From an uncultured virus (IMG/VR IMGVR_UViG_3300020500_000003) (Duplodnaviria; Heunggongvirae; Uroviricota; Caudoviricetes): DNA of 64,000 nt. The DNA lies in the IMG/VR virus record IMGVR_UViG_3300020500_000003. One strand, given 5' to 3'. Position numbers and translations under genes: made by a program. Of this stretch, positions 2,523-19,930 are shown piece after piece. Positions within the stretch are counted from its first letter, which is position 1. Each line of letters opens with the position of its first letter. A model generated the notes under the pieces. The model did no database searches. It worked only from the letters and a program-made list of their open reading frames with translations, and had not been told where the DNA came from.

Positions 2523-3599
2523 TTAGAAGGGTAAATCTTCAACTTGTGGCTCTTCTGTATCATCAATTAAATTGATTACAGTTCTTCTTCTTGTAGTTGG
2601 TTCATCTAAAGGTTCATTTCCTAAAACACTATTAACAAATGCTTCTGCTGGAGTTACTGGATATTCATTATAAGAATCAGTAAAACTATTCAGAAGAGTA
2701 GAAGGATTAATTAAATTCTCATTTATCAATCTTCTTGATTCTTCTATATTAATAGAATTAAGATAATCAGCACTAATAGGATTAATAGGGTCAATAGCAC
2801 CTCTTCTTCTCATTTGAGCTACAATACCTTCCATTTTAGGAATTTCTTCTTCCCATATAACCTCATCAGTTTTAATAGGAACAAATTTTCTTTGTCTATC
2901 CTCAATTTTACTACCTATTCCAGGATTAAAAGTTTTGAATTGTTCATTACTTTTAAACATAATATTACCTACATTATCTCTTAAATGATTTTGTAATTCA
3001 TCTACAGTATTGAATTTCAATTCAAACTCATTAGAATAAGTTAATTTTTCAATTTTAGAAGTTGTGGTAAATACTACTGGAATTTCAGCTTTGTAAGCAT
3101 CTAAAATATATTCTTTTTCTAATTTTTTATAGAAATTTGAATATACAGGATTAGTTAGTAATTCAGTAGAAATTAATAAAGTTAAATGTTTAGCATTTTC
3201 TTTAGGAATTGAAACATTTGAATACCTTGATTGATAATGTAAACTTAATCTATCAGGTTTAGTAGTCAATACCATAAGAAGTTCATCTTTTTCATTAACT
3301 ATATAACCTTTTGCTACATGAATTATTATCTTTTCTTCTCCTACACCTAAATTAAAAGGATATAAACCAACAGATTCATTTATCATTCCAAGAAAATCTC
3401 TTAAATTAAATTTTTTTGGTGAATTTTTATTTAATGCTGGTCTATTATAAATTATAAAGTCTCCTTCATAAATTCTTTGATGTCGAGAACCTTCTCTATG
3501 ACAATTAATTATAGGTATAAAATAAGAAGTAGCTGATGAACCAATTTTAAACTCATTACCAGAGAACTCACTACTATAAGTTTCAGTTAATTGTAACAT
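2523..3599 (-). CDS. hypothetical protein immediately downstream of the E1 gene
   Basis: 358 aa ORF with an acidic tail ending EDLPF; starts 3 nt from the E1 stop. Confidence 0.75.
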   Translation of the reverse strand: MLQLTETYSSEFSGNEFKIGSSATSYFIPIINCHREGSRHQRIYEGDFIIYNRPALNKNSPKKFNLRDFLGMINESVGLYPFNLGVGEEKIIIHVAKGYIVNEKDELLMVLTTKPDRLSLHYQSRYSNVSIPKENAKHLTLLISTELLTNPVYSNFYKKLEKEYILDAYKAEIPVVFTTTSKIEKLTYSNEFELKFNTVDELQNHLRDNVGNIMFKSNEQFKTFNPGIGSKIEDRQRKFVPIKTDEVIWEEEIPKMEGIVAQMRRRGAIDPINPISADYLNSINIEESRRLINENLINPSTLLNSFTDSYNEYPVTPAEAFVNSVLGNEPLDEPTTRRRTVINLIDDTEEPQVEDLPF

Positions 3600-3601
3600 A
3601 T

Positions 3602-4288
3602 TTAAAACTTATTAGTGGTTAAAGCTAAAGGAATAAAGAACTCGTGATAAAAGGGAACATCTCTCACAACTTCTCTTTCATATATGTTTGTCATGTGATT
3701 AGTGAAAAAAGCAGTCATTAAAGTAGCTATCATAGCTGCTGCATGTGAAGTTTGTTTCATTGTGCAAGGTGCATCTTCAACTTCTTCATCAGTAAATAAT
3801 GTTTTTTCATAATCTGCAATTCTGTCTGGAGTTACACAGAAAATTTGCAATTGTTCCATTTCTAATCTACCATCAATTAAAATAGGTGTTACTGCACAAT
3901 TTTCAATACTTCTTTTCCAGTTTTCAAACATATTTTTTCTTGCTAACATATTGTCAAAACCAGAAAACATAAAATAGTGAGTTGGAGAGTTTTCATCTAT
4001 TCTATTGTTAAATCCTGACATTGAATCATTAGCAAATTCCTTAATAATTTCAGATAAGGCAGAAACTTTATGTTTCCCTACATCTGAAAGTCTAAATAAT
4101 TGACCTCCTGTATTATGTTCTTCAATAATATCAAAGTCATATACAATTGGTTTAAATCCTGCTCTTGCAAGAAATAATGTGAGCCAAGAGGAAATTCCTC
4201 CTGCTCCACCTACCATTACAGTTTCATTTTCTTTTGGAAACCAAGGGGCATCTTTAAATCTATTATACTGTTGTGTCATTTTTCTCAA
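3602..4288 (-). CDS. ThiF/MoeB/E1-family ubiquitin-like activating enzyme
   Basis: Nucleotide-binding loop VGGAGGISSW, DFDIIEEHNTGGQLF, KHKVSAL, GFDNMLARK, IDGR, and a candidate catalytic Cys in DAPCTMK. The start may be M at 4279. Confidence 0.9.
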   Translation of the reverse strand: MRKMTQQYNRFKDAPWFPKENETVMVGGAGGISSWLTLFLARAGFKPIVYDFDIIEEHNTGGQLFRLSDVGKHKVSALSEIIKEFANDSMSGFNNRIDENSPTHYFMFSGFDNMLARKNMFENWKRSIENCAVTPILIDGRLEMEQLQIFCVTPDRIADYEKTLFTDEEVEDAPCTMKQTSHAAAMIATLMTAFFTNHMTNIYEREVVRDVPFYHEFFIPLALTTNKF

Positions 4289-5519
4289 ATTCTACAATCA
4301 TAGCTTTAATAGCTTCAATTGTTACATTAATAAATGGAAATTGCATAACTTCGTCTTCTAATAAATCAATTACAGTATATGTATCTTCAATAAATTCTTC
4401 ATCAGTAGAATCAGGAAAATGTTTGTCATACAAAAATGTGTAATTTTCAATAACAGAGGAAGCAATTTGATAAGCATGTACTTCTAAATCTTCTAATAAA
4501 ACTAAAGCATCTTCAAGATTTTCATCAGGTTCAATAGGAGTAGTAAATTTCATTAACTCTACCAAGAATGTATCAATTGGACTTAATTCATCAATTTCTG
4601 ATAAATCATCAAAAGTTCTAAAATCAATCATAGAAGCAATATCTTTTATTTTTTTACCTCTTTTTGATAATTTACTTTCATCTATTTTATAATGCTTGAT
4701 TTTGTTAGCTAATTTAGCATTTTCTAAATTATTTACTACTGGAATAGCAGTAGGAGTATTAGGAACAAATTTACCATTAATCCATTTACCATTACTAAAT
4801 GCTGTATTAACAGCAGGATATGTGTGAGGAGTAAATTGTTTAATAGGTTTAGGTTTCATAATTTCCTTAACTCTATTATCAAATCCCTCTTCCACAATTA
4901 CTTGTTCAAATGGAGAAATAATTTCACAATCATAGACAAACATTTTATCTTTTTTCAAAGTAATATTTGGTCTATCAATTATGTATTTAGTTCCATCTTC
5001 ATCATTTGCTAAATATGGAATTTCTTTAATTTCTTGTTCTAAACTTGCTACAAAAGCAACTTTAGCCATAAAATCCATATAATTATTAACAATTAATGAT
5101 AAATAAAAGTTGTGTGATGGAGAATTATCATTTAATTCAGCCATATCAGTACCAGAGAAAAACACAGCCATAGTATTATGACTATGAATATGACCTACAT
5201 ACCAATCCATTCTTTTTTCATCTTCCATTAGATAATCAAGGTATCTATCATCAAGCTCATATTCTGTATAAGCTGATGTTCCTTTATCTAATGGTAAAAT
5301 ATCTTCCAGTTTTATTTTGAATGTTAGTGGGTCTTTAATACTACCTTCAATAGAGTAGAATAAAGCACCAGACCATTCATCTTTGTTTATATTTTTACAA
5401 AGGTACTTGATTTTGTTCAGAATCTCTTCTGACATAATTACTGGAAGTTTCAATGTAGTTAATTCCGCTACCTCTAACACAGGCTTTGTAAATTTCGGAT
5501 TCGAGTTGTTTACAGACAT
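4263..5519 (-). CDS. JAB/MPN (JAMM) metalloprotease-domain protein with acidic C-terminal region
   Basis: DEWSG (catalytic Glu) followed by GHIHSHNTMAVFFSGTD, i.e. the JAMM motif E...HxH-x7-S-x2-D. Confidence 0.88.
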   Translation of the reverse strand: MSVNNSNPKFTKPVLEVAELTTLKLPVIMSEEILNKIKYLCKNINKDEWSGALFYSIEGSIKDPLTFKIKLEDILPLDKGTSAYTEYELDDRYLDYLMEDEKRMDWYVGHIHSHNTMAVFFSGTDMAELNDNSPSHNFYLSLIVNNYMDFMAKVAFVASLEQEIKEIPYLANDEDGTKYIIDRPNITLKKDKMFVYDCEIISPFEQVIVEEGFDNRVKEIMKPKPIKQFTPHTYPAVNTAFSNGKWINGKFVPNTPTAIPVVNNLENAKLANKIKHYKIDESKLSKRGKKIKDIASMIDFRTFDDLSEIDELSPIDTFLVELMKFTTPIEPDENLEDALVLLEDLEVHAYQIASSVIENYTFLYDKHFPDSTDEEFIEDTYTVIDLLEDEVMQFPFINVTIEAIKAMIVEFEKNDTTV

Positions 5520-6651
5520 AATCTAAAAAATTAGGATAAATTCCATATTCGGAAATATCAATTGTTGTTATTTGTTCAATAGGTAATATATTGAAAGATA
5601 ATTTCTTACCTTGAATATATAGGAAAGGCATTTCACCAGAACCTTGTTCTTTTATTCTATTTGTGATTAATTGTGGACCAGAAATCATTTGTCCTATTTC
5701 AGGATATGTGTAAAATTCACCATCACTTCCTTTTTTGCAAACAACTTTTACAATATAATCTTTAAGATTTTCATTAGATAAAAATGCTTCTCTTAAATAT
5801 TCTGTAAAAACAGAATCTTTTTTAATTTTATATATATTATCCATATATACAAAATTAAAAGGTAGTTTTTGTGAAACAGATAATTCATAATTTTGAAATT
5901 CTCTATAAATACCTATAATATCAGATGTTTGAGTAGTAACTCTTATAGCTGCATATTCTACTGTTATTTCTCCTATTCTAAAATGAGGACCTCCTTCTAA
6001 ACTTTCCCAAGCAACAAGAGAATCAATAGTATAAAGCATTAATTCAAATTTATCTGAATCAAATTCAGCAGATAATTCAATATCTAATTCTGATAAATCT
6101 TCTGAACCAATACAAAAGTTATTTGTAGTTAAACATTCACTAAAACCAGTAATTTTTGATATACCAGGTAGATGACTATGCATATATCCTCTATTCCATT
6201 CATCCTGTACTAATGTTAATCTTGTACCTTGTACTCTTTTAGTATAAATACAATTATTATCAACACTAAAAGTAACAGGTAATACAACTACTAAATCTAA
6301 TAGATTTCTTGATTGTTCACTACTATTTGTAATTTCTAATTTAGGATAATGAAAAATAAAACTTATTTCATAGTAATTTTTATCACTTATTCTTCTATTA
6401 TTTAGATGAATATCCCACTTATCTACAAACTTTCTTTCAAAAACAGTAATTAATTCAAAAAGTTGTTCTGTAAAAATAGCATAGTTTCTTTTATGCAGAA
6501 TTTCAGGTCTATCATTTGAACTAATATAGCATATTTTACCTTTATCAATCATCTTTTTTAACCAATTTCTATTTCTGGTTAATCCTGATATTCTTGCTGA
6601 ACTAATATAGTTTTGAAACTTATTAGATGATTTATTAATTTTTAAATCCAT
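5395..6651 (-). CDS. prokaryotic E2-like (Ubl-conjugating) protein
   Basis: YMHSHLPG...NNFCIGS matches the His...F-C-x-G pattern of prokaryotic E2 families; it lies between the Ubl and JAB/E1 genes. Confidence 0.65.
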   Translation of the reverse strand: MDLKINKSSNKFQNYISSARISGLTRNRNWLKKMIDKGKICYISSNDRPEILHKRNYAIFTEQLFELITVFERKFVDKWDIHLNNRRISDKNYYEISFIFHYPKLEITNSSEQSRNLLDLVVVLPVTFSVDNNCIYTKRVQGTRLTLVQDEWNRGYMHSHLPGISKITGFSECLTTNNFCIGSEDLSELDIELSAEFDSDKFELMLYTIDSLVAWESLEGGPHFRIGEITVEYAAIRVTTQTSDIIGIYREFQNYELSVSQKLPFNFVYMDNIYKIKKDSVFTEYLREAFLSNENLKDYIVKVVCKKGSDGEFYTYPEIGQMISGPQLITNRIKEQGSGEMPFLYIQGKKLSFNILPIEQITTIDISEYGIYPNFLDYVCKQLESEIYKACVRGSGINYIETSSNYVRRDSEQNQVPL

Positions 6652-6665
6652 TTTTTGAAGTAATT

Positions 6666-6698
6666 AAAAAAGCTCTTTACTTATGTAAAGAGCTTTTT
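6666..6698 (-). terminator. intrinsic terminator between the Ubl and E2 genes
   Basis: Perfect inverted repeat aaaaagctctttac-ttat-gtaaagagcttttt with A/T tails on both sides. Confidence 0.8.
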
Positions 6699-6716
6699 GT
6701 TATAGAAATGAAAAGA

Positions 6717-7589
6717 TTATCCAAACATTTTAGCTTCAGCAGCTAATCTGTCATCTTCTTCTTTTTCAAGTCTTTTTTGTTCTTCTTTTTCAGCTTTTTC
6801 AGTAGCAATTTTTTCTTGCTCTTCTTTTTCAGCTTTTTCTCTTGCAATTCTTCTACCTTCATCTTCAGGAGATTCATTATCTTTTGAAGCAGCAACAGAA
6901 GCTACTACATCTGCAACAGTTGTTACAGTAGCAGTATCATCATTTTCAACTTCTTCTTTTAAACCAGGTAAATAATCATCAAGAATTTCATTTGCTCTAT
7001 CAGAAACATCTTCATTTTCTGTATTATCACAAATTTCTTTTAATAAAGTTTCAACTTGTTCAACTCTATCAGCATTTGTAATAGTTCTTACAGGAGTAGA
7101 AGGAGTTTCTGTTACTGTAGTAGTTTCAGTAGCTACAGGAGCAACTTCTTCTTTAACATCTGCTTTTGCAGCACCAGAAGGAGCAACAAAAGTGTTTAAT
7201 AACTCTCTCAAGATTTCAGTACCTTTTGTAGTATAGTTTTTTTCTTGATTATAGTGAGCATCTGCTGCTTCTTTAAAAGAAGTAAAATCATCTTTGATAA
7301 CAGCTTTAATATCTTTATAAGATAAACCATCTCCTCTACCACCAGATTTAACTTGTTTAGGTCTCATAAAAACAGTAAAATCACCTGCTGGTAATACTGC
7401 TGCATCATTAACAAGGTCTGTTTTGTTAATGTTTTCTGTAGCATGTAATTTGTCAAGGTCATAACCTTCACTTTTAATCAGAGATTTTAATTCACCCCAA
7501 GTTGAAACTTCTGTTTCCAATTTTGCTTTTTTTGCTCCTTTTGTAGCATAAAGTGTAATAACTCTTGCTGTACTTGTTTGTGTACTCAT
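6717..7589 (-). CDS. ubiquitin-like (beta-grasp) domain precursor: Ubl aa 1-84 ending GG, fused to an acidic/coiled-coil extension
   Basis: RVITLYAT-KAKLETEVSTWGELKSLI...AVLPAGDFTVFMRPKQVKSGG shows a strand-strand-helix-strand pattern with di-Gly at aa 83-84 (7338-7343); it is adjacent to E2, JAB and E1. Confidence 0.65.
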   Translation of the reverse strand: MSTQTSTARVITLYATKGAKKAKLETEVSTWGELKSLIKSEGYDLDKLHATENINKTDLVNDAAVLPAGDFTVFMRPKQVKSGGRGDGLSYKDIKAVIKDDFTSFKEAADAHYNQEKNYTTKGTEILRELLNTFVAPSGAAKADVKEEVAPVATETTTVTETPSTPVRTITNADRVEQVETLLKEICDNTENEDVSDRANEILDDYLPGLKEEVENDDTATVTTVADVVASVAASKDNESPEDEGRRIAREKAEKEEQEKIATEKAEKEEQKRLEKEEDDRLAAEAKMFG

Positions 7590-7609
7590 TTTTTTAATTT
7601 TTTAAAAAT

Positions 7610-8359
7610 TTACCAATTGATTTTGTTTAGAGATTTTTTCTCTAATATTGTATTAACATAACTGAAATGATTACAACCAAAAAAACCAGCATTTGAAGAA
7701 TATGCTTCTGCTGCTGGATGTGCTGCTCTTAAAATATAGTTCATATATGGACTATTAGGAACATCTTTTATAGTTTCTTTACTATAATTTTTTACATCAA
7801 AGAGTGTTTTTTTTGGCATATTTGAAATAAACATTTGTGCTTTCTTTCCCCACAATAACCATATACATGGATTAGTGGAAGCAATATACCAAATAACTTT
7901 CTTTGTAAAATCTTCCCAATATTTAAGATGACTTCCAGGTTTTCCTGATTCAACTGTCAAAGCTGTATTTAGTAAAAATACACCTTGTTGTTCCCAATGT
8001 TCTAAAGTTTTCCATTCAGTATTATATTCATTTAAAGTATGAGATAATGTTTGATTTAACAATTTTTCATTTTCTAACTCTTTATAAATATTTTTTAAAC
8101 TTACAGGAACTTTTACATCAGAATTTACAGCAAATGCTAATCCATTTGCATTTCCTTTTGTAGGATATGGGTCTTGACCCAAGATAACAACTTTGATTTC
8201 TGAAACAGGTTTTTGAAACACTCTAAAAATATTCTGTTTTTCTGGGTAATATATAGAAGTAGGTAATACTTCTTGATTTAATCTTAACATTTCTTCTTGA
8301 TTTAACAACCCTGTTAATAAGGGAAGCCAAGAAAAATGAATTTTGTCTGTGGGTTTCAT
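7610..8359 (-). CDS. ung: uracil-DNA glycosylase (family 1)
   Basis: VILGQDPYP, GLAF, LLNTALTV, WLLWGKKA, HPAAE. Confidence 0.95.
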   Translation of the reverse strand: MKPTDKIHFSWLPLLTGLLNQEEMLRLNQEVLPTSIYYPEKQNIFRVFQKPVSEIKVVILGQDPYPTKGNANGLAFAVNSDVKVPVSLKNIYKELENEKLLNQTLSHTLNEYNTEWKTLEHWEQQGVFLLNTALTVESGKPGSHLKYWEDFTKKVIWYIASTNPCIWLLWGKKAQMFISNMPKKTLFDVKNYSKETIKDVPNSPYMNYILRAAHPAAEAYSSNAGFFGCNHFSYVNTILEKKSLNKINW

Positions 8360-9390
8360 GTGAATTTGATTAAAAACTCTTCTAAAGATTCTTTTCCTTT
8401 TCTGTGTAATAAATCAGAAGGGTCTGATATACCAATAACATTTAGTTTTTCTGGTAGCCACAAAGAATTACATTTATTAGGAAAATAAGAATTGATTAAA
8501 TTACTGATTTTTTGAGAACTCTCAATCCCTTGAGTATCATTATCAAACCATACAATAACTTTATTAAATCTTTTAATTATAGGAATTAAAATTGTAGAAT
8601 CTGGTATCATACCTTCATTCTGAAACCATATTGCATATTTACCATTATTTATAAGAACTCTCCAGTCCTTATATGATTTAGTAATAATTAATTGATTTCC
8701 AAAAGGAGGTAATTTATTTAAACCACCAATATCATCTTTTGTACAAGTAGAAACAAATCTACCTTTACCTTCTCTATAAGGAAAATAAAGTTTTTTTCTA
8801 CCATTATTAAAATCTGTATATCCATAGCAAATATCATAACATCTACTACTGAAATCTCCTTTTTTTGAATTTGATATATGATATTTGTTAATCGCAAAAA
8901 CTTTATCTTCTATCAAATTCTCTTTAGTTATTCCATATCTATTTTCCCAAAATACACCATCTTTTTTTAAAAATGGTCTTGAATCAAAATTAATTATTAC
9001 TTCTTTTCTTTGTATGATATGTTGGATTCTTTTTTCTGCAATTACATTCTTATTCTTTATTAGTCTGTTATACACATATTCAAGTGTAAGGTAGAAATTA
9101 GAAATTTTAAAGTATTGCTGTACAGCATCAAAACAATCCATAGGTTTATTAACTCTGCTATTAGCATAATCAATAAATCTTAATTTTCCAGTATGAGATG
9201 TAGTTCTTTCAAACCAACAACCTGGATTTCTATCATTTCTAAAAGGAGAAGTAACATAACTATATTCTTCTGGTTGAAAACCAAAAACTAATTCAAAAAT
9301 CTCTTCTTCTGTAACATATTCAAGAATAACATTTTGATTAATAAAACCTCTTCTATCAGTATTGTCAGATGTAAAAACATTCTTATTCAT
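8356..9390 (-). CDS. DNA primase (TOPRIM, crAss-type)
   Basis: SPFRNDRNP, IITKSYKD, VWFDNDTQG, DPSD. Confidence 0.85.
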   Translation of the reverse strand: MNKNVFTSDNTDRRGFINQNVILEYVTEEEIFELVFGFQPEEYSYVTSPFRNDRNPGCWFERTTSHTGKLRFIDYANSRVNKPMDCFDAVQQYFKISNFYLTLEYVYNRLIKNKNVIAEKRIQHIIQRKEVIINFDSRPFLKKDGVFWENRYGITKENLIEDKVFAINKYHISNSKKGDFSSRCYDICYGYTDFNNGRKKLYFPYREGKGRFVSTCTKDDIGGLNKLPPFGNQLIITKSYKDWRVLINNGKYAIWFQNEGMIPDSTILIPIIKRFNKVIVWFDNDTQGIESSQKISNLINSYFPNKCNSLWLPEKLNVIGISDPSDLLHRKGKESLEEFLIKFT

Positions 9391-19221: not shown

Positions 19222-19260
19222 AAAAAAACAGAAAGTGAAGAAAAAATCTTCACTTTCTGT
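19222..19260 (-). terminator. intrinsic terminator
   Basis: acagaaagtgaaga-aaaaa-tcttcactttctgt with a U-tract on the minus strand. Confidence 0.8.
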
Positions 19261-19279: not shown

Positions 19280-19930
19280 TTAAAGAACTTTTTGACCAGC
19301 TTCTTCTAATTCATTTTTAATTTCTGCTGTTAGATATACATCTAATGGTTCAGCAGTTCTTGTGTCCATATCTCCAATAGAGCTTACTTTGAAGCAAACT
19401 TGACGATATTGACATTTTCCATTTTCATCCAATACCAAACTTCCTGCATCAGGATGATTGTCTGGGTATCTAACAACTTGTCTGTTACCAATAACATCCA
19501 TAGTAGTCAATCCAGCAGTAATAGCATATTTTTGACTATCATTTAAGATTGGTTTGTTAGACAAAACTCTGTAAAGAGTAGCATTAGGAAAACTTTTCAA
19601 TATTTCTGTTACAGATTCAATAGTAGAATCTACAGGAACATCAATCCAAGCAACTCTTGTTTCAACATTTTCATAAGGTTCATTTTCTTTAAAACCAAAA
19701 TCTTTGATATCAAAAATGTTGTCTTGCATGTCATTGCTTACAGACTTACTTGGGTAAAAACTCAAGGTTTTTACAGTCTGTTTAATTTCAGCAGATAATG
19801 TGCCTTCTTTTTGCCAAGCACTTTTATATACTCTTGTAACTTCTAAACCTGCTTTTGAGATTTCTTTTCTGATTCTTTCTTGTGCTTCTGCAACTGTAGA
19901 ATCAACTGGTGTTTGAACTGTTGTGTTCAT
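19280..19930 (-). CDS. hypothetical protein
   Basis: 216 aa ORF with an A-rich leader. Confidence 0.8.
   Translation of the reverse strand: MNTTVQTPVDSTVAEAQERIRKEISKAGLEVTRVYKSAWQKEGTLSAEIKQTVKTLSFYPSKSVSNDMQDNIFDIKDFGFKENEPYENVETRVAWIDVPVDSTIESVTEILKSFPNATLYRVLSNKPILNDSQKYAITAGLTTMDVIGNRQVVRYPDNHPDAGSLVLDENGKCQYRQVCFKVSSIGDMDTRTAEPLDVYLTAEIKNELEEAGQKVL

Follow-up and report, generated by a model that had tools for sequence, protein, structure and literature searches.

A predicted ubiquitin-like precursor with a capped glycine beside JAB, E1 and E2-like genes in the replication module of a crAss-related Flavobacterium phage

Gene content and distribution of the locus

The window, that is, the whole stretch of DNA analysed here, comprises the first 64 kb of a 72.7-kb virus record. 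Its phage is an Fpv3/FpV4-like Flavobacterium phage related to the crAss-like gut phages, and among its genes are PHROG matches to primase, helicases, polymerase, terminase, portal and major head protein. Within the replication module lies a cassette with the gene order ubiquitin-like protein (Ubl), E2-like protein, JAB peptidase and E1, as claimed in a preliminary description of this DNA. That description also reported a 206-aa acidic C-terminal extension, an internal Gly-Gly at aa 83-84 and a perfect 14-bp hairpin between the Ubl gene and the three enzyme genes, all of which are present in the window, as is the 290-aa open reading frame itself. The features of the locus are:

6717..7589, minus strand: gene of the Ubl precursor, 290 aa (homologous proteins in 29 Flavobacterium phage records, homology to crAss001 gp79)
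7341..7589, minus strand: predicted ubiquitin-like (beta-grasp) domain, aa 1-83, ending in K81-S82-G83
7341-7343, minus strand: codon after which the protein is predicted to be cut (G83; from its conservation and from relatives with one residue past the Gly)
7185..7325, minus strand: small helical tail domain, aa 89-135, with an N-[Y/W]-T motif (conserved residues)
6720..7184, minus strand: variable acidic tail with T/A/E linkers, a helical segment at about aa 169-212 and a C-terminal E..L..EA..L..G[F/Y]-like helix
6666..6698, minus strand: terminator-like hairpin with arms 6667-6680 and 6685-6698 and a U6 tract at 6666-6671
5395..6651, minus strand: E2-like protein of 418 aa (UBC/RWD-like fold in the model of its core)
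4263..5519, minus strand: JAB/JAMM peptidase (weak Prok-JAB match, E 0.007; conserved motif)
3602..4288, minus strand: minimal ThiF/UBA5-like E1 (ThiF, E 4e-12; invariant C175)
2523..3599, minus strand: fifth gene, usually after E1 (synteny; match only to an unnamed PHROG)

The four genes and the fifth gene lie between primase and resolvase/exonuclease genes, with replication genes also downstream, and the Ubl gene starts 20 nt after an upstream uracil-DNA glycosylase (UDG) gene. The same order recurs in environmental loci and among gut phages of the Steigviridae, cr128_1 and crAss001 (gp79-gp75) included, and the window Ubl is a homologue of crAss001 gp79, linked via cr128_1. At the protein level, the Ubl is 87-92% identical to its homologues in the 29 Flavobacterium psychrophilum phage records, which are of the Fpv1-4 type (genus Fipvunavirus). 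In a cultured-phage collection, the cr128_1 Ubl and the window JAB matched 74 records each, with the same breakdown by name, while E1 matched 79, five more, all from jumbo phages of Xanthomonas and Erwinia. A search for plasmid relatives of the Ubl found none. Moreover, the E1 profile gave four close matches in cellular genomes. In three of them, probably phage contigs that were mis-binned, a phage primase adjoins the cassette; the fourth match is a fragment of 3 kb. Among the relatives (numbered L), L208, L210 and L211 are cassettes in cellular genome bins, one of which is labelled archaeal, and phage primase genes flank them, so that mis-binning of phage contigs is probable for all three.

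The fifth gene has no match in Pfam or NCBIfam. Its product consists of a conserved N-terminal part of 200 aa and an acidic tail ending in VEDLPF. This ending resembles the partner-binding tails of SSB proteins, and the product is a candidate targeting factor. In crAss001, the replication genes are described as middle genes that are switched on at 10-30 min (PMC8375218).

An invariant and always capped glycine

The gene is a real, conserved phage Ubl precursor. Its sequence at the domain junction reads ...KQVKSG83-G84-RGD, with 207 residues past G83 and 206 past G84. We aligned the window protein with 170 homologues, which were collected with residues 1-140 and hence favour long forms. K81 is present in 171/171 and G83 in 170/171 of the aligned proteins, and the family motif is K-[S/A]-G83. 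Position 84 (n=170) is most commonly Ala (62), followed by Gly (21), Leu (20), Ser (15) and others, and only 7 of 70 distinct Ubls from E1-anchored loci have Gly there. The preliminary description had noted an internal di-Gly and expected conservation among homologues to end at SG(G). The first of these glycines is conserved as predicted; the second, judged from the alignment, is incidental and without conservation. G83 is also invariant across 52 diverse domains, whose ends were set at this Gly.

The E1-anchored set comprises 84 loci, three of which ended before the Ubl position, and provides the 70 distinct Ubls. All 70 have a JAB gene in the same locus and none ends in a free Gly. Their tails range from 1 to 252 aa, the shortest caps being a single extra residue in four Ubls and three residues in one. 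Short homologues were also collected with a domain-only profile, which found 87, with the motif in 81. A free Gly occurs in 0/81 of these, and 18 have 1-5 extra residues, although some of them may be contig fragments. On a quick tree built from joined JAB and E1 segments (59 rows, with five partial loci and near-copies excluded), the one-residue caps need at least 3 changes. Stop-codon read-through as an origin of longer products from the short forms was rejected, since more in-frame stops follow within a few codons.

The domain thus ends at G83, and this Gly stays capped even where the tail has been lost, as would be expected if processing were obligatory. The capped invariant Gly together with the linkage to JAB strongly implies JAB cleavage after G83, not G84, and we consider a cut at this position very probable from the sequence data. 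Of the earlier proposal that JAB cuts after G83 or G84, the need for JAB processing is thus retained and the cut after G84 is dropped. As for the fold, the Ubl has no family match in searches of Pfam, NCBIfam and PDB sequences, and its Atlas model compares with ubiquitin domains at TM 0.51-0.53, which is below the Atlas naming bar. In L169, a second Ubl-like ORF of 95 aa that lacks the K-S-G motif lies directly upstream of the normal Ubl gene at 2308.

JAB, E1 and E2-like enzymes

By their sequences, the JAB and E1 motifs are intact. The window JAB carries E48 ... H112-S-H114-x7-S122-x2-D125, and this motif is complete in 132-133 of 135 relatives, the rest being gaps. E1 is a single 228-aa ThiF-like domain with C175 in 134/138 relatives (again, the rest are gaps); its best family matches are ThiF models, at a score of 51.9 against a cut-off of 159. 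The E2-like gene always adjoins the Ubl gene, and S159-H160 and C180 of its product are invariant apart from gaps. Searches of Pfam, NCBIfam and PDB sequences gave no family match for this protein, a Prok-E2_D search of the window's genome found nothing, and an Atlas search returned no usable matches. Its predicted structure matches UBC-fold chains, and a UBC-like fold is predicted on this basis. Apart from the precursor gene, the cassette has no constant Ubl gene.

A set of genes with some resemblance was seen in the Xanthomonas jumbo phage PhiXhv-15 (L047:1751-5630). It encodes a 141-aa protein ending in a free Gly-Gly, one of 892 aa that carries an E2-like HPH...LCLG motif, and a related small E1, which likewise lacks the usual Arg. 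No JAB gene was seen in 10.5 kb of sequence that includes this set, which could possibly represent a natural contrast, with a free Gly where JAB is absent. In profile comparisons with the cassette, the Ubl was non-significant and the E2 Cys motif marginal (E 0.019), and another E2 profile comparison gave nothing.

The C-terminal tail

The tail contains 52 D/E against 29 K/R residues. It is made up of a helical segment (aa 89-135), T/A/E-rich linkers and an E/K-rich end, which bears out the earlier reading of its composition. In the helical domain, N118 is found in 153/171, T120 in 162/171 and L127 in 152/171 of the aligned proteins, and in the C-terminal acidic helix L282 is found in 129/171 and E285 in 138/171. 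Both elements are kept across lineages that are only about 30% identical, and the helical domain was detected in 50/70 E1-anchored and 70/72 gut crAss-type Ubls. It has no match in Pfam or among PDB sequences. A likeness to SAP/HeH/Rho-N nucleic-acid-binding folds was considered; the Pfam and PDB sequence searches did not support such a fold.

The conservation of the helical domain argues for a function of the tail, and lineages that lack this domain, with tails down to one residue, argue that the cassette needs no tail in cis. A second functional polypeptide, as suggested in the preliminary description, is plausible from the conserved domain, but with one-residue tails in several lineages it is not something that the cassette requires in cis. 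On sequence conservation, the released tail probably has an accessory job; overall, we would put the odds of a job for it at about even.

Small acidic ORFs lie between a short-cap Ubl gene and the E2-like gene at L198:3181-3366, L210:3250-3483 and L204:2365-2529. In L198 and L210, where the Ubl has a one-residue cap, the ORF is coupled by TAATG and precedes the hairpin. Against a tail-end profile, the L198 and L210 ORFs ranked 107 and 35 of 554, which establishes no homology; by their position after short-cap Ubls, these small ORFs are possible split-off tails. In L161, L162, L163, L166, L167, L168, L174 and L175, a conserved coiled-coil-like ORF of about 100 aa lies just upstream of the Ubl gene, and the Ubl tails of this clade are 64-72 aa long and lack the helical domain.

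A conserved hairpin after the Ubl gene

The inverted repeat after the Ubl gene has perfect 14-nt arms and a 4-nt loop, and 14 nt separate its end from the start codon of E2. In five of the 14 pairs, all A-U, one partner belongs to the U tract, which leaves a core stem of 9 bp, four of them G-C, and then U6 on the coding strand. With its stable stem (folding z = -5.5; as stable in 0/200 shuffles) and a U tract just past the Ubl stop codon, it has the form of an intrinsic terminator. A consensus terminator scanner did not list this site, and Rfam gave no match there.

After the Ubl stop, a hairpin with a T tract is present in 33/34 Ubl-anchored loci, compared with at most one after any other gene. 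Under a strict test in the E1-anchored loci, it is present after Ubl in 64/70, compared with 0/72 after E2, 1/73 after JAB, 1/71 after E1 and 5/58 after the fifth gene. Only 6/72 gut crAss-type loci passed this strict test, owing to bulges in the stems. A bulge-tolerant test, applied in the same way to all genes, detected the hairpin after Ubl in 62/70 E1-anchored and 68/71 gut crAss-type loci, with controls of up to 14/71 and 14/73. The position of the hairpin is conserved, usually ending about 7-30 nt before the E2 start; although these loci are related to one another, their stem sequences differ. A covariation count on a sequence-only alignment gave 45% paired, no better than in shuffles; it is uninformative, since sequence alone does not bring the stems into register.

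The codon usage of the Ubl gene is the second most capsid-like of 29 window genes, while E2 ranks 27th, and the share of ATA codons is lower in Ubl than in E2 in 62/70 and 69/69 loci. Similar hairpins also stand after the major capsid gene and the gene at 19280-19930, which apart from Ubl have the strongest bias. Taken together, the conserved hairpin and the capsid-like codon bias make it likely that the tag is produced in excess over the enzymes, in agreement with the preliminary description. The gene at 19280-19930 encodes 216 aa. Of the genes tested, its codon usage is the most capsid-like; it is followed at 19228-19260 by a strong hairpin and T tract, and its product is probably abundant.

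Whether the hairpin belongs to a stand-alone Ubl transcription unit is a separate matter. TAnnTTTG is the -7 promoter element of Bacteroidota. This host-type element is absent from the coding strand at 6053-8753, and no promoter was found at the Ubl gene. The 20-nt gap to the UDG gene, the lack of a promoter element and the replication genes downstream are easier to reconcile with partial termination or stabilisation of the message than with a stand-alone unit. From the sequence context, the hairpin thus probably ends or stabilises a longer upstream transcript, and from the earlier claim of an own terminator we keep the conserved terminator-like hairpin and give up "own". Alternatively, the hairpin could be no terminator at all and instead stabilise the 3′ end of a processed message or slow E2 translation. 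Its closeness to the E2 start in most loci, the missing promoter element and the replication genes lying downstream would agree with this. We regard it as the less probable reading, since nearly all loci have a U tract behind the stem, and like hairpins stand after the major capsid gene and the gene at 19280-19930.

Proposed pathway and alternatives

We propose that the Ubl gene gives rise to a blocked ubiquitin-like pre-protein, which the cassette JAB would cut after Gly83 into an 83-residue tag and a separate tail protein of 207 residues. The small E1 would adenylate the tag and pass it as a thioester from its Cys175 to Cys180 of the E2-like protein, and the tag could then be joined to proteins during the DNA-replication phase of infection. 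By lowering transcript levels past the Ubl gene, or by stabilising the upstream message, the hairpin would keep the tag in excess over the enzymes. The released tail may serve an accessory role that is dispensable in some lineages. The capped invariant Gly, the JAB linkage, the intact catalytic residues, the conserved hairpin and the codon bias are features of the sequences, and from them we infer cleavage, conjugation, a transcript step and a tail function. We give the pathway as a whole (blocked pre-protein, JAB cut after Gly83, E1/E2 relay and excess of tag) a probability of about two in three; attachment of the processed Ubl to proteins is, by itself, fairly likely from the gene content.

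Several other explanations were considered. The tail could be a mere disposable cap or expression aid, with JAB cutting after G83 and no later job for the released part. Tails of only 1-3 residues in 5/70 Ubls, the length variation from 1 to 252 aa, and coupled small ORFs that do not score as tail homologues (ranks 35 and 107 of 554) are in line with this idea. We find it unlikely in view of the N-[Y/W]-T domain and the C-terminal helix, which are retained across the distant lineages, the domain in nearly all gut crAss-type Ubls (70/72). It would be improbable, furthermore, that the processed Ubl is a sulfur carrier with a ThiS/MoaD/CysO-like thiocarboxylate that serves DNA, tRNA or a cofactor and is no protein tag. 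JAB trimming of capped sulfur carriers is known, and such trimming is also proposed in PMC1779556. The ThiF models as best family matches of E1 would fit a sulfur relay. Against a carrier stand the UBC-like protein with its invariant Cys, which is always adjacent, the ThiF equivalog score far under its cut-off (51.9 vs 159) and the absence of the linked thiamine, molybdopterin and rhodanese genes among 17 neighbouring proteins scanned. Finally, the protein could act uncut as an adaptor with an integral Ubl domain, JAB having its substrate elsewhere. Most members do have a long tail with conserved elements, and a free-Gly form is absent from the family; an invariant Gly at the domain end and repeatedly arisen one-residue caps would, however, be purposeless in an adaptor, and the cassette contains no other constant Ubl gene, which makes this very improbable.

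Within the proposed pathway of JAB cleavage and E1/E2 relay, the tail could even have a specific role. JAB would release a conserved helical partner in a 1:1 ratio with the tag, and this partner would steer the tag, in an E3-like manner, to the replication machinery or to host defence proteins, as part of a thioester pathway run by crAss001-type gut phages and their aquatic relatives. This extension is doubtful at present. If it were true, the cassette would be a virus-run counterpart of the Bil defence and a parallel, in the bacterial world, of ubiquitin fusion genes.

Relation to known systems

In eukaryotic ubiquitin-ribosomal protein fusions, a deubiquitinase cuts the product of one gene into a tag and a second protein, in a 1:1 ratio. 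For the Ubl precursor this is an analogy only, as here there is a single Gly, an unrelated tail and no sequence match. The PRTRC system (NCBIfam TIGR03734-03742) resembles the cassette in having a stand-alone Ubl, an E2-like protein, JAB and E1 on Bacteroidota mobile DNA. It differs in that the cassette Ubl has a long tail, that the cassette proteins score far below the cut-offs for PRTRC_A (13 vs 102) and PRTRC_ThiF (30 vs 145), and that there is no Prok-E2_D match.

Like the phage cassette, the Bil system (BilABCD) has separate Ubl, E2, JAB and E1 genes and no E3, and a single reactive Gly that is capped and exposed by JAB, with a Cys on both E1 and E2 (PMC10557695, PMC11601596). The cassette shares with Bil the capped Ubl with a separate intact JAB and the stand-alone E2 with a predicted catalytic Cys. 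In contrast to the cassette, which is phage-borne and lies in a replication module, Bil is a host anti-phage defence; its E1 is a large IAD-AAD-CYS protein instead of a single 228-aa domain, and its caps have up to nine residues where the cassette cap is usually a protein of 100-250 aa. Cleavage after one named Gly is likewise described for both Bil and Bub: BilC cuts BilA at Gly97|Ala98 (PMC10557695), and in the BubAB pre-protein the cut made by the JAB domain of BubCD falls after G229 (PMC11601596). In Type I Bub (BubAB, BubCD, BubE; PMC11601596), the released part is the E2, which the cassette tail is not. There, Ubl-E2 and JAB-E1 are fused, whereas the cassette has four separate ORFs, and catalysis proceeds through Tyr and Ser oxyesters, whereas the cassette keeps E1 C175 and E2 C180. 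Bub also includes the BubE/DUF6527 serine protease; for the fifth gene of the cassette, Pfam and NCBIfam searches gave no match. Tail assembly protein I of Lambda/T1 is likewise a phage Ubl with a C-terminal domain beside JAB, for which Gly cleavage has been proposed; it has neither E1 nor E2 and acts in tail assembly, not replication (PMC1779556). The cassette lacks defining features of Bil, Bub and PRTRC and yet would work like them.

While processing of a precursor has already been proven for Bil and Bub, what is new here is the phage setting, together with a long tail that is not an E2. In the openly available literature searched, we found no description of such a cassette in these phages. 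A term search for ubiquitin or ThiF gave no mention in PMC7886860, PMC10136315, PMC10354031 and PMC10028833, and PMC12135933 mentions only a host Bil-like system. The parts of PMC11601603 and PMC1779556 that were used contain no crAss-type case. So far, bacterial ubiquitination has been characterised as host defence against phages. Parts of the same kinds, which are currently annotated as hypothetical or "thiamine biosynthesis", are core genes in a wide phage group; it includes the cultured human-gut phages crAss001, DAC15 and the crAssBcn isolates and also phages that are applied against a pathogen of trout. With a single predicted cut site, two catalytic cysteines and natural variants lacking the tail, protein tagging by phages, and the identity of the tagged proteins, can be tested directly.

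Insertions in the JAB and E1 genes

The JAB gene of Fpv2 (NC_031931, L220:680-1700) is interrupted by an insert of about 1 kb between H110 and I111, at a site that corresponds to window positions 5187-5190; the window lacks the insert. The insert carries a LAGLIDADG endonuclease gene on the opposite strand, follows a T and ends in a G, and the reading frame can be restored by its removal. Such T/G boundaries are found in group I introns. Rfam detected no group I intron in this insert, which is nevertheless likely, from its boundaries and content, to be one that Rfam missed. A two-piece JAB match occurs in about 22 of the 29 Flavobacterium records, a figure taken from the pattern of search matches, with one record examined itself. 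Intron-like inserts in the motifs of JAB and E1, with a restorable frame in the examined case, are as expected for needed genes and, if spliced, would point to such a need. In L204, a gap of about 1.2 kb lies in the JAB metal motif (L204:3922-5079), and an Rfam-confirmed group I intron (89 bits) lies in the E1 gene of L170 (L170:5715-5995).
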